DNA from: a phage
Sequence record: PZ195128.1
Strand: one strand, 5' to 3'
DNA length: 3,400 nucleotides
The translations under genes and the position numbers were made by a program. This document shows, piece after piece, positions 1,297 through 3,400 of this stretch (position 1 is the stretch's first letter; every line of letters starts with the position of its first letter). Under the pieces are notes generated by a model that saw only the letters and a list, made by a program, of their open reading frames with translations, was not told where the DNA came from and searched no databases.

Positions 1297-1689
1297 ATGG
1301 CAACTTTACGCAGTTTCGTACTCGTCGATAATGGCGGTACGGGGAATGTTACTGTCGTTCCTGTTAGCAATGCCAACGGCGTCGCTGAGTGGCTTTCTAA
1401 TAACTCGCGCAGTCAAGCTTATCGCGTGACTGCCAGTTATCGTGCGTCAGGCGCGGATAAGCGCAAATACACCATCAAACTTGAAGTACCGAAAATCGTT
1501 ACTCAAGTTGTAAATGGTGTTGAGCTGCCTATCTCCGCATGGAAGGCTTATGCCTCCATTGACCTGACCATCCCTATCTTTGCGTCGACCGACGATGTGA
1601 CCGTTATTTCCAAGTCACTCGCTGGCCTGTTCAAGGTCGGGAACCCTGTAGCCGAGGCTATCTCTTCTCAGAGTGGCTTCTACGCTTAA
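1297..1689 (+). CDS. cp: Major coat (capsid) protein, 130 aa
   Basis: The translation MATLRSFVLVDNGGTGNVTVVPVSNANGVAEWLSNNSRSQAYRVT...RKYTIKLEVPKIVTQVVNGVELP...LTIPIFA...GNPVAEAISSQSGFYA carries the hallmark levivirus coat blocks (FVLVDNGGTG, NGVAEW, SRSQAY, RKYTIK, GVELP, LTIPIFA). From memory it is near-identical to the phage GA coat protein. Size is typical (about 130 aa). Stop TAA at 1687-1689. Confidence 0.97.
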   Translation: MATLRSFVLVDNGGTGNVTVVPVSNANGVAEWLSNNSRSQAYRVTASYRASGADKRKYTIKLEVPKIVTQVVNGVELPISAWKAYASIDLTIPIFASTDDVTVISKSLAGLFKVGNPVAEAISSQSGFYA

Positions 1690-1880
1690 TGGGTCTGAAA
1701 GCAAAACATAAGGAAAACCTATGTTCCGATTCACAGAGATCGAAAAGACTCTATGTATGGATCGCACTCGCGATTGTGCTGTCCGATTTCACGTCTATCT
1801 TCAGTCATTGGATTTGGGGTCTTCTGATCCTCATTCTCCGGACTTTGATGGACTTGCCTACCTTCGTGATGAGTGTTTAA
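1689..1880 (+). CDS. lys: Lysis protein (L-type single-gene lysis protein), 63 aa, overlapping the coat stop and the replicase 5' region
   Basis: ATG 1689-1691 shares its A with the coat stop codon (TAATG). The ORF is in a third frame and overlaps the first 160 nt of the replicase gene. The product has a basic, polar N-terminus (KAKHKENLCSDSQRSKR) followed by a hydrophobic segment LYVWIALAIVLSDFTSIFSHWIWGLLILIL containing an L-S dipeptide. This resembles the MS2 L protein core (LYVLIFLAIFLSKFT). Position, size and architecture match levivirus L proteins. Confidence 0.85.
   Translation: MGLKAKHKENLCSDSQRSKRLYVWIALAIVLSDFTSIFSHWIWGLLILILRTLMDLPTFVMSV
1705..1725 (+). promoter_or_regulatory. Translational operator-like hairpin enclosing the replicase start codon (candidate coat-protein binding site)
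   Basis: Seen in sequence: 5'-AACAU-A-AGG-AAAA-CCU-AUGUU-3'. Lower stem 1705-1709 pairs with 1721-1725, one A is bulged (1710 or 1711), upper stem 1711-1713 pairs with 1718-1720, and the loop is AAAA (1714-1717). The replicase AUG (1721-1723) lies in the 3' arm, and the replicase Shine-Dalgarno AAGGA (1710-1714) lies in the bulge, upper stem and loop. The architecture (bulged purine, 4-nt A-rich loop, AUG in the 3' arm) parallels the MS2 operator ACAUGAGGAUUACCCAUGU. Confidence 0.7.
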
Positions 1881-3319
1881 CTAAACATCCCTCACTTGGA
1901 GACAGTAATTCGGACGCACGCCGTAAGGAATTGGCATATGCCAAACTTATGGATAGTGATCAAAGATGCAAAATCCAAAACAGTAACGGATACGACTACT
2001 CTCATATCGAGAGTAGCGTACTGAACGGTATACTCAAGACCGCTCAGGCCCTTGTGGCGAACTTACTTACGGGTTTTGAATCTCACTTCCTGAACGATTG
2101 TTCATTCTCCAATGGAGCCTCACAAGGGTTCAAGTTGCGGGATGCAGCGCCGTTTAAGAAGATCGCTGGGCAAGCAACCGTTACAGCTCCTGCTTATGAC
2201 ATTGCCGTGGCCGCCGTTAAAACGTGCGCGCCGTGGTATGCTTATATGCAGGAAACGTATGGCGATGAGACCAAATGGTTTCGTCGGGTATACGGCAACG
2301 GTTTGTTTTCTGTTCCGAAGAACAATAAAATAGATCGGGCTGCCTGCAAGGAGCCTGATATGAATATGTACCTTCAGAAGGGTGCGGGATCTTTTATAAG
2401 AAAACGCCTCCGCTCTGTCGGTATAGATCTTAACGATCAAACGTGCAATCAGGAATTAGCCCGACTTGGCAGCATTGATGGATCGCTCGCTACTATTGAT
2501 CTTAGTAGCGCTAGCGATTCTATCTCTGACCGTCTTGTCTGGGATTTACTTCCACCGCACGTTTATTCATACCTCGCCCGTATCCGCTCATCTTTCACGA
2601 TGATTGATGGTCGGCTACACAAGTGGGGTCTATTTTCTACCATGGGTAATGGCTTCACATTCGAGCTCGAGTCCATGATTTTCTGGGCTCTGAGTAAGAG
2701 TGTTATGCTGTCCATGGGTGTTACTGGCTCATTAGGCATCTACGGGGATGATATAATTGTCCCTGTTGAGTGTGCTCCAACTCTCCTTAAGGTATTATCC
2801 GCTGTTAACTTTCTTCCTAATGAAAGGAAGACGTTTACTACGGGTTACTTTCGCGAAAGTTGCGGTGCTCACTTCTTTAAAGGTGCCGACATGAAACCTT
2901 TTTACTGCAAGCGGCCAATGGAAACCCTTCCCGATGTCATGTTGCTATGCAACAGGATAAGGGGTTGGCAGACCGTTGGTGGAATGTCAGATCCGCGGCT
3001 CTTTCCAATTTGGAGAGAATTCGCTGATATGATTCCGCCGAAGTTTAAGGGTGGATGCAACCTGGATCGCGACACTTACCTCGTTTCACCTGATAAACCC
3101 GGTGTCACATTGGTTCGTATCGCTAAGGTACGCTCTGGTTTTAACCACGCGTTCCCGTACGGTCATGAAAATGGCCGCTACGTCCACTGGTTGCATATGG
3201 GATCGGGAGAAGTTCTCGAGACCATATCCTCCGCCAGGTTTAGGTGTAAACCTAACTCGGAATGGAGAACACAGATCCCTCTATTTCCTCAGGAATTAGA
3301 GGCCTGCGTTCTCTCCTGA
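1721..3319 (+). CDS. rep: RNA-dependent RNA polymerase (replicase beta subunit), 532 aa
   Basis: Long ORF containing the catalytic YGDD motif (GIYGDDIIVP). Extensive blocks I recognise from the MS2 replicase: DPHS.DF...AYLRDE.LTKHP.LG, FSNGAS.G.KL.DAAP.KK, VPKNNKIDRAACKEPDMNMYLQKG, SVGIDLNDQ, GS.DGSLATIDLSSASDSISDRLVW, FSTMGNGFTFELESMIFWA, RKTF..G.FRESCGAHF, KPFY, GGMSDPRL, PQE. Stop TGA at 3317-3319 followed immediately by TAG. Confidence 0.97.
   Translation: MFRFTEIEKTLCMDRTRDCAVRFHVYLQSLDLGSSDPHSPDFDGLAYLRDECLTKHPSLGDSNSDARRKELAYAKLMDSDQRCKIQNSNGYDYSHIESSVLNGILKTAQALVANLLTGFESHFLNDCSFSNGASQGFKLRDAAPFKKIAGQATVTAPAYDIAVAAVKTCAPWYAYMQETYGDETKWFRRVYGNGLFSVPKNNKIDRAACKEPDMNMYLQKGAGSFIRKRLRSVGIDLNDQTCNQELARLGSIDGSLATIDLSSASDSISDRLVWDLLPPHVYSYLARIRSSFTMIDGRLHKWGLFSTMGNGFTFELESMIFWALSKSVMLSMGVTGSLGIYGDDIIVPVECAPTLLKVLSAVNFLPNERKTFTTGYFRESCGAHFFKGADMKPFYCKRPMETLPDVMLLCNRIRGWQTVGGMSDPRLFPIWREFADMIPPKFKGGCNLDRDTYLVSPDKPGVTLVRIAKVRSGFNHAFPYGHENGRYVHWLHMGSGEVLETISSARFRCKPNSEWRTQIPLFPQELEACVLS
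1749..1838 (+). other. Predicted transmembrane segment of the lysis protein (with L-S dipeptide at 1779-1784)
   Basis: Residues 21-50 of the 63-aa product are almost entirely hydrophobic or aromatic (LYVWIALAIVLSDFTSIFSHWIWGLLILIL). Codons CTG TCC at 1779-1784 encode L-S in the lysis frame. Confidence 0.6.
2741..2752 (+). other. YGDD catalytic motif (RdRp motif C) within the replicase
   Basis: The codons TAC GGG GAT GAT at 2741-2752 encode Y-G-D-D in the replicase frame, within GIYGDDIIVP. Confidence 0.9.
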
Positions 3320-3400
3320 TAGTATCAGGACCTCCCCGGATGGGGTGGGTGTGACCGAAAGGCCACTATGGAGGTGAACCCTCCACCGCCCAAAAGGCGG
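3320..3400 (+). other. 3' untranslated region with a series of stem-loops (probably truncated at the 3' end)
   Basis: Seen in sequence: hairpin 3315-3329 (CCUGAU/AUCAGG) enclosing the replicase stop codon; 3334-3345 (CCCC-GGAU-GGGG); 3351-3366 (GUGACC-GAAA-GGCCAC with a GNRA-type GAAA loop and one mismatch); 3369-3385 (UGGAGG-UGAAC-CCUCCA); 3386-3400 (CCGCC-CAAAA-GGCGG). The window does not show a terminal C-run ending in A. Confidence 0.65.

Follow-up and report, generated by a model that had tools for sequence, protein, structure and literature searches.

The window analysed here, a stretch of 3,400 nt, is a near-complete genome of a group II ssRNA coliphage, Emesvirus japonicum (the classical group II F-specific RNA coliphages). 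In a megablast comparison with annotated phage records, phage GA (X03869 / NC_001426) aligns with 100% of the window at 94.6% nucleotide identity, the BZ13 strains DL10 and DL20 match it at 94.6–94.7%, and KU1 and BZ13 strain T72 at ~86%; all of these phages are Emesvirus japonicum. The window spans GA positions 29–3429 of 3466 and hence falls short of a full genome by ~28 nt on the 5′ side and ~37 nt on the 3′ side, which makes it a near-complete rather than a complete genome (its ends are 1–107 and 3,320–3,400). Judged from its sequence, it is a new strain-level, GA-like variant of a very well studied phage.

Four forward ORFs lie in the order typical of leviviruses, maturation–coat–lysis–replicase, and the Pfam matches of all four products exceed the curated cutoffs and fall in the expected families (window coordinates are given on the + strand throughout). 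The maturation gene occupies 108–1,280, its ATG at 108 lying within the listed ORF 78–1,280 (Phage_mat-A). The coat gene at 1,297–1,689, taken from the ORF list, comprises 130 codons and a TAA, matches Levi_coat (E = 1.4e-37), and aligns with the annotated GA coat CDS at 1325–1717. The lysis gene at 1,689–1,880, likewise from the ORF list, comprises 63 codons and a TAA; its product matches PF11125 (Phage_MS2_lysis) with 30.6 bits against a gathering cutoff of 25, and shares 94–98% identity with the lysis proteins annotated in GA, BZ13, and KU1. The replicase gene at 1,721–3,319 (RNA_replicase_B) overlaps the lysis gene from 1,721 on, in another frame. Minus-strand ORFs such as 1,615–1,767 (50 aa) are a mechanical output of the ORF listing that nothing supports, and we set them aside. 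A promoter and terminator scan of 1,500–1,900, irrelevant to an RNA phage, gave no promoter-like site. At 1,580–1,600, inside the coat gene, a terminator-like stem-loop is followed by a T-rich run; as a transcription terminator this is meaningless in an RNA phage, and the match probably reflects no more than local folding of the RNA.

The coat and lysis genes meet in the pentamer UAAUG at 1,687–1,691, in which the coat stop UAA (1,687–1,689) and the lysis start AUG (1,689–1,691) have A1689 in common. An earlier note on this DNA had described the lysis ATG as overlapping the coat TAA by one nucleotide; the description is exact in all its coordinates, and the TAA lies in the coat frame. We aligned six genomes, namely the window, GA, DL10, DL20, KU1, and T72. 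UAAUG is identical in GA, DL10, and DL20, all three of which are annotated with the same one-base overlap, and in the GA record (Inokuchi et al. 1986; coat 1325–1717, lysis 1717–1908) this annotation dates from 1986. From UAAUG onward to beyond the replicase start, the junction alignment shows the window to be identical to GA. At 1,686, directly before the pentamer, the window has U (Ala GCU) where GA, DL10, and DL20 have G and the KU1 type has C; within 10 nt of the junction nothing else separates the window from GA, and the change is synonymous, Ala being retained.

With five copies in the window, the pentamer TAATG is not rare per se. The copy at the junction is non-random: it connects the coat stop with a conserved lysis ORF recognised by Pfam, and the junction is kept in GA, DL10, and DL20. 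From the previous in-frame stop (1,560) to 1,689, the lysis frame holds no ATG, GTG, TTG, CTG, or ATT, and the next standard in-frame start downstream is a GTG at 1,776, which is codon 30 and falls within the hydrophobic segment. Position 1,689 is therefore the only credible lysis start.

To gauge Shine-Dalgarno (SD) strength, the 3′ tail of 16S rRNA was paired with the 20 nt preceding each start codon, and the most stable duplex was scored. By this measure the lysis start reaches −2.7 kcal/mol, as against −9.5 for maturation, −6.1 for coat, and −6.2 for replicase. The lysis value stands at the 50th percentile (the median) of all 20-nt windows of the sequence, the other three genes at the 1st–9th percentiles. 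The earlier note had singled out GAGTGG as the sole purine-rich stretch upstream, weak and badly spaced, and the energies agree with it: GAGUGG (1,671–1,676) is the only such stretch, ends 12 nt before the A of the lysis ATG, and scores no better than the window median. It is predicted to be paired, within the 3′ arm of a hairpin at 1,654–1,680, and DL10 reads GAGCGG at the same site. GAGUGG is not a functional Shine-Dalgarno. At the lysis start of the UAAUG-type genomes (the window, GA, DL10, and DL20) the anti-SD energy is −2.5 to −2.7 kcal/mol, and in the KU1 type it is −4.0 kcal/mol and the match is poorly spaced; by these energies, no lysis start among the relatives examined has a meaningful SD.

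In principle, a free 30S subunit might initiate de novo at the lysis AUG, either through the weak GAGUGG or through protein S1, so that coat translation would be unnecessary. GAGUGG is present, and the A-rich region 3′ of the lysis AUG (GAAAGCAAAACAUAAGGAAAA) could aid S1 binding, but an anti-SD energy at the median, a spacing of 12 nt, and the predicted pairing of GAGUGG in the hairpin all speak against such entry. So do reporter experiments in GA, in which loss of the upstream start codon abolished expression and no deletion or substitution freed it (PMC9955659). Independent initiation at this AUG is thus hardly credible.

We take these GA results, those of Inokuchi et al. 2000 (EMBO J 19:3788), from the same authors' 2023 summary (PMC9955659). 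In fusions of the GA coat-UAAUG region to lacZ, changing the AUG of the upstream ORF to AUU eliminated reporter expression, and an analysis by deletion and base substitution uncovered no sequence that allows expression independent of coat (PMC9955659). With AUA in place of the AUG of UAAUG, frame-0 reading, expressed relative to upstream reading, fell from 24.7% to 0.4% (PMC9955659). In the plasmid reporter, 24.7% of the ribosomes that read the upstream ORF start again in the AUG frame, a fraction of ~25% that may not hold on the folded genomic RNA in infection, because the reporters carried a truncated upstream ORF, giving no full-length coat protein, and a mutated operator hairpin and replicase AUG (PMC9955659). 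The proposal of the earlier note that lysis expression is coupled to coat termination and reinitiation is borne out by these reporters, whose junction region is near-identical to that of the window; the comparison that it called for, of a lysis reporter with and without coat translation, had already been made in GA, and expression was lost as predicted (PMC9955659).

Minimum-free-energy folds of the region predict the imperfect hairpin at 1,654–1,680, which ends 8 nt before the lysis AUG. The GA record labels GA 1683–1707 (window 1,655–1,679) as 'pot. stem loop structure; pot. function in lysis gene control', and the sequence here folds as that annotation has it, at −13.9 kcal/mol, slightly weaker than the −15.5 kcal/mol of GA (z = −0.74, as against −1.95 for GA). 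Among the aligned relatives the hairpin shows no compensatory changes, and two of its pairs are broken; we retain it as a prediction only, with weak support. Folding further predicts an outer stem at 1,643–1,694, formed by ACCC (1,643–1,646) and GGGU (1,691–1,694), so that the coat stop would lie inside it and the G of the lysis AUG and lysis codon 2 would be paired. The fold of 1,640–1,735 (96 nt) has an energy of −27 kcal/mol and a z of −2.62, that is, it is modestly structured. The four outer-stem pairs are invariant in the six genomes, and covariation consequently says nothing either way about this stem. Farther 3′, at 1,705–1,725, the fold contains the replicase operator hairpin, the coat-protein binding site, with a bulged A and an AAAA loop; it starts 16 nt 3′ of the lysis AUG, holds the replicase AUG (1,721–1,723), does not vary in any of the relatives, and corresponds to GA 1733–1753, recorded there as 'pot. 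binding site coat protein'.

The predicted outer stem could be read in terms of the classical MS2 model of RNA unfolding, in which the terminating coat ribosome would melt the structure at 1,643–1,694 that hides the lysis AUG and a different, free ribosome would initiate. Consistent with this, the stem encloses the junction in a region with z = −2.62, its sequence is conserved in all relatives, its KU1 counterpart is predicted to be longer and to bury the UUG at which lysis starts in that phage, and MS2 lysis control has been explained in these terms (2025 review). Against it, a ribosome terminating at a −1 spacing covers the very start that it would expose (an argument of the 2025 review), the junction offers no SD to recruit a free 30S subunit, deletions and substitutions in GA gave no independent expression (PMC9955659), and the stem, its pairs being invariant, draws no covariation support. 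We therefore consider unfolding very improbable here. By the reasoning of the 2025 review, a second ribosome cannot occupy the start beside a terminating one at −1 spacing, and this spacing, together with the missing SD, favours restart by the same ribosome.

The KU1-type relatives present a different junction. In KU1 and T72, an insertion of 18 nt splits the pentamer precisely between UAA and UG, and their annotated lysis start is a UUG lying 17 nt after the coat stop; a UUG start for KU1 is also given in a citation of Groeneveld et al. 1996. The invariant operator sequence, used to scan IMG/VR and the JGI metagenomes, retrieved six further contigs, one of which is GA itself and five of which are KU1-type, too few for covariation statistics. 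In KU1 (1700–1745) and in five further sequences, the insertion opens with GGCGUAG, the exact reverse complement of the coat-final CUACGCC, and this complementarity is predicted to place the coat stop UAA in the triloop of a new 7-bp hairpin in the KU1 type. The 3′ part of the KU1 insertion, UUCAGCAUUGGG, is predicted to pair with the upstream CCCGGUUGCUGA, so that the UUG start would be buried in an extended stem (−31.4 kcal/mol, z = −3.0). One of the contigs with the 18-nt insertion, OGVH01001890.1, reads CAGUAAUGG where the others have CAGCAUUGG (~385–400). With this change, its lysis gene starts at AUG and the coat frame gains a second UAA, re-creating UAAUG 18 nt past the real coat stop; the contig could stand midway between the GA-type and KU1-type junctions or be a reversion from one to the other.

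These comparisons bear on why the coupling is tight. In GA reporters, spacings of −1, 0, +1, and +4 nt between the UAA and a downstream AUG gave about equal expression (PMC9955659). The earlier note had attributed a very tight coupling to the stop/start overlap; the tightness stands, whereas the overlap as its cause does not, given the equal expression at −1 to +4 nt in GA and the 17-nt gap in the KU1-type phages. Tightness instead follows from the missing SD, that is, from the lack of an independent ribosome entry site, and not from the one-base overlap.

Coupling through termination leaves more than one route by which the ribosome may reach the start. The 2025 review distinguishes two general coupling models, RNA unfolding and ribosome scanning, with MS2 (lysis start at −50 nt) first explained by unfolding, and with scanning to the closest start codon first supported by phage fr. 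The statement of the earlier note that lysis genes of 'MS2-type phages' depend on reinitiation holds as far as coupling to coat termination goes, but it merges these two mechanisms, which the literature keeps apart. At the junction studied here, the same coupling might proceed through an unreleased 70S or 30S that scans bidirectionally to the nearest start (Adhin and van Duin) rather than through release by ribosome recycling factor (RRF) and rebinding. Phage fr uses exclusively the start nearest to the coat stop, upstream or downstream (2025 review), and a KU1-type restart 17 nt downstream, at an SD-less UUG, is easier to picture by scanning than by release and rebinding. Set against this are the GA experiments with a temperature-sensitive RRF, in which only the AUG frame was read with active RRF and all three frames were read downstream once RRF was inactivated (PMC9955659). 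Inokuchi et al. read these data as release and rebinding (the Kaji/Inokuchi view), together with the asymmetric effect of distance, activity falling with distance when the AUG lies upstream of the stop (PMC9955659). The RRF data weigh against scanning, though not strictly so where it is short-range. We regard scanning as a real possibility for this sub-step, with somewhat less than an even chance.

Whichever sub-step applies, termination-reinitiation coupling at UAAUG with no independent ribosome entry very probably holds for this strain. The coat gene would act as the upstream ORF whose terminating ribosomes supply the lysis gene: a ribosome that has translated coat would terminate at the UAA at 1,687–1,689, and after peptide release a fraction of the post-termination ribosomes would re-engage the AUG that shares A1689, in a frame differing from that of coat, and translate the 63-residue lysis protein. 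Free ribosomes would be unable to start at this AUG. Our own analysis supplies the junction, the absence of an SD, the identity of both genes, and the near-identity to GA. Strict dependence on coat translation comes from the GA reporters, and the near-identical sequence suggests that it extends to this strain; nothing in the window contradicts the coupling reading.

Lysis protein would accordingly be made as a fixed fraction of coat translation and would rise only as coat synthesis accumulates. Lysis, its output tied to coat synthesis, would thereby be delayed until capsid protein is abundant, and the coupling may thus set lysis timing in this strain. That the junction sets the lysis-to-coat ratio, as the earlier note proposed, is a reasonable idea, for which the ~25% from plasmid reporters is the one figure available. 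The operator could add a further layer. Starting 16 nt 3′ of the lysis AUG, it lies where a ribosome on that codon would have its leading edge, and bound coat is a possible barrier: late in infection, an operator-bound coat dimer might confine post-termination ribosomes near UAAUG and raise the restart frequency, or it might block lysis elongation. We think this unlikely, though if it were true, lysis output would depend on the concentration of coat as well as on the rate of coat translation.

The feature itself is already known, having been annotated in 1986 and dissected since 2000 in a phage 94.6% identical to the window. It is a textbook-grade case of SD-less translational coupling, through which a 3.4-kb RNA phage ties a lethal lysis protein to cumulative capsid output without a dedicated regulator, and the GA junction has served for 25 years as a model for post-termination ribosomes, including the function of RRF. 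An intact junction in another strain adds one more natural sequence variant and no new principle.

Among known systems, GA is the closest. It shares with the window the UAAUG, the sequence from the junction through the operator, the anti-SD energy, the upstream hairpin, and a 63-residue lysis protein (94% identity), and differs from it by four lysis amino acids and, within the final 70 nt of the coat gene, by a few synonymous substitutions. The KU1 type (KU1, BZ13 T72, and the metagenomic sequences) has the same genes, an SD-less lysis start, the same lysis gene from codon 2 onward, and the operator hairpin; unlike the window, it has the 18-nt insertion, a UUG start 17 nt past the stop, and a stop in the loop of a 7-bp hairpin. 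MS2 and fr encode a homologous L-type lysis protein (PF11125), and there too the gene straddles the coat-replicase boundary and is coupled to coat termination. Their lysis starts, in contrast, lie within the coat gene, 50 and 38 nt before its stop, and are masked by a hairpin, the start of fr being a UUG (2025 review). In the window, the lysis start is at the coat stop itself, the overlap with coat is a single base, and the lysis frame contains no start candidate between 1,560 and 1,689.

Outside the phages, prokaryotic gene pairs that overlap by −1 nt (UAAUG) or −4 nt (AUGA) have the same stop/start geometry and the same termination-reinitiation logic. Most cellular overlap couplings keep an SD inside the upstream gene and pair the subunits of a complex at roughly 1:1. 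The junction in the window differs from them on both counts: it has no SD, and its coupling holds a toxic product to a fraction of a highly expressed one.
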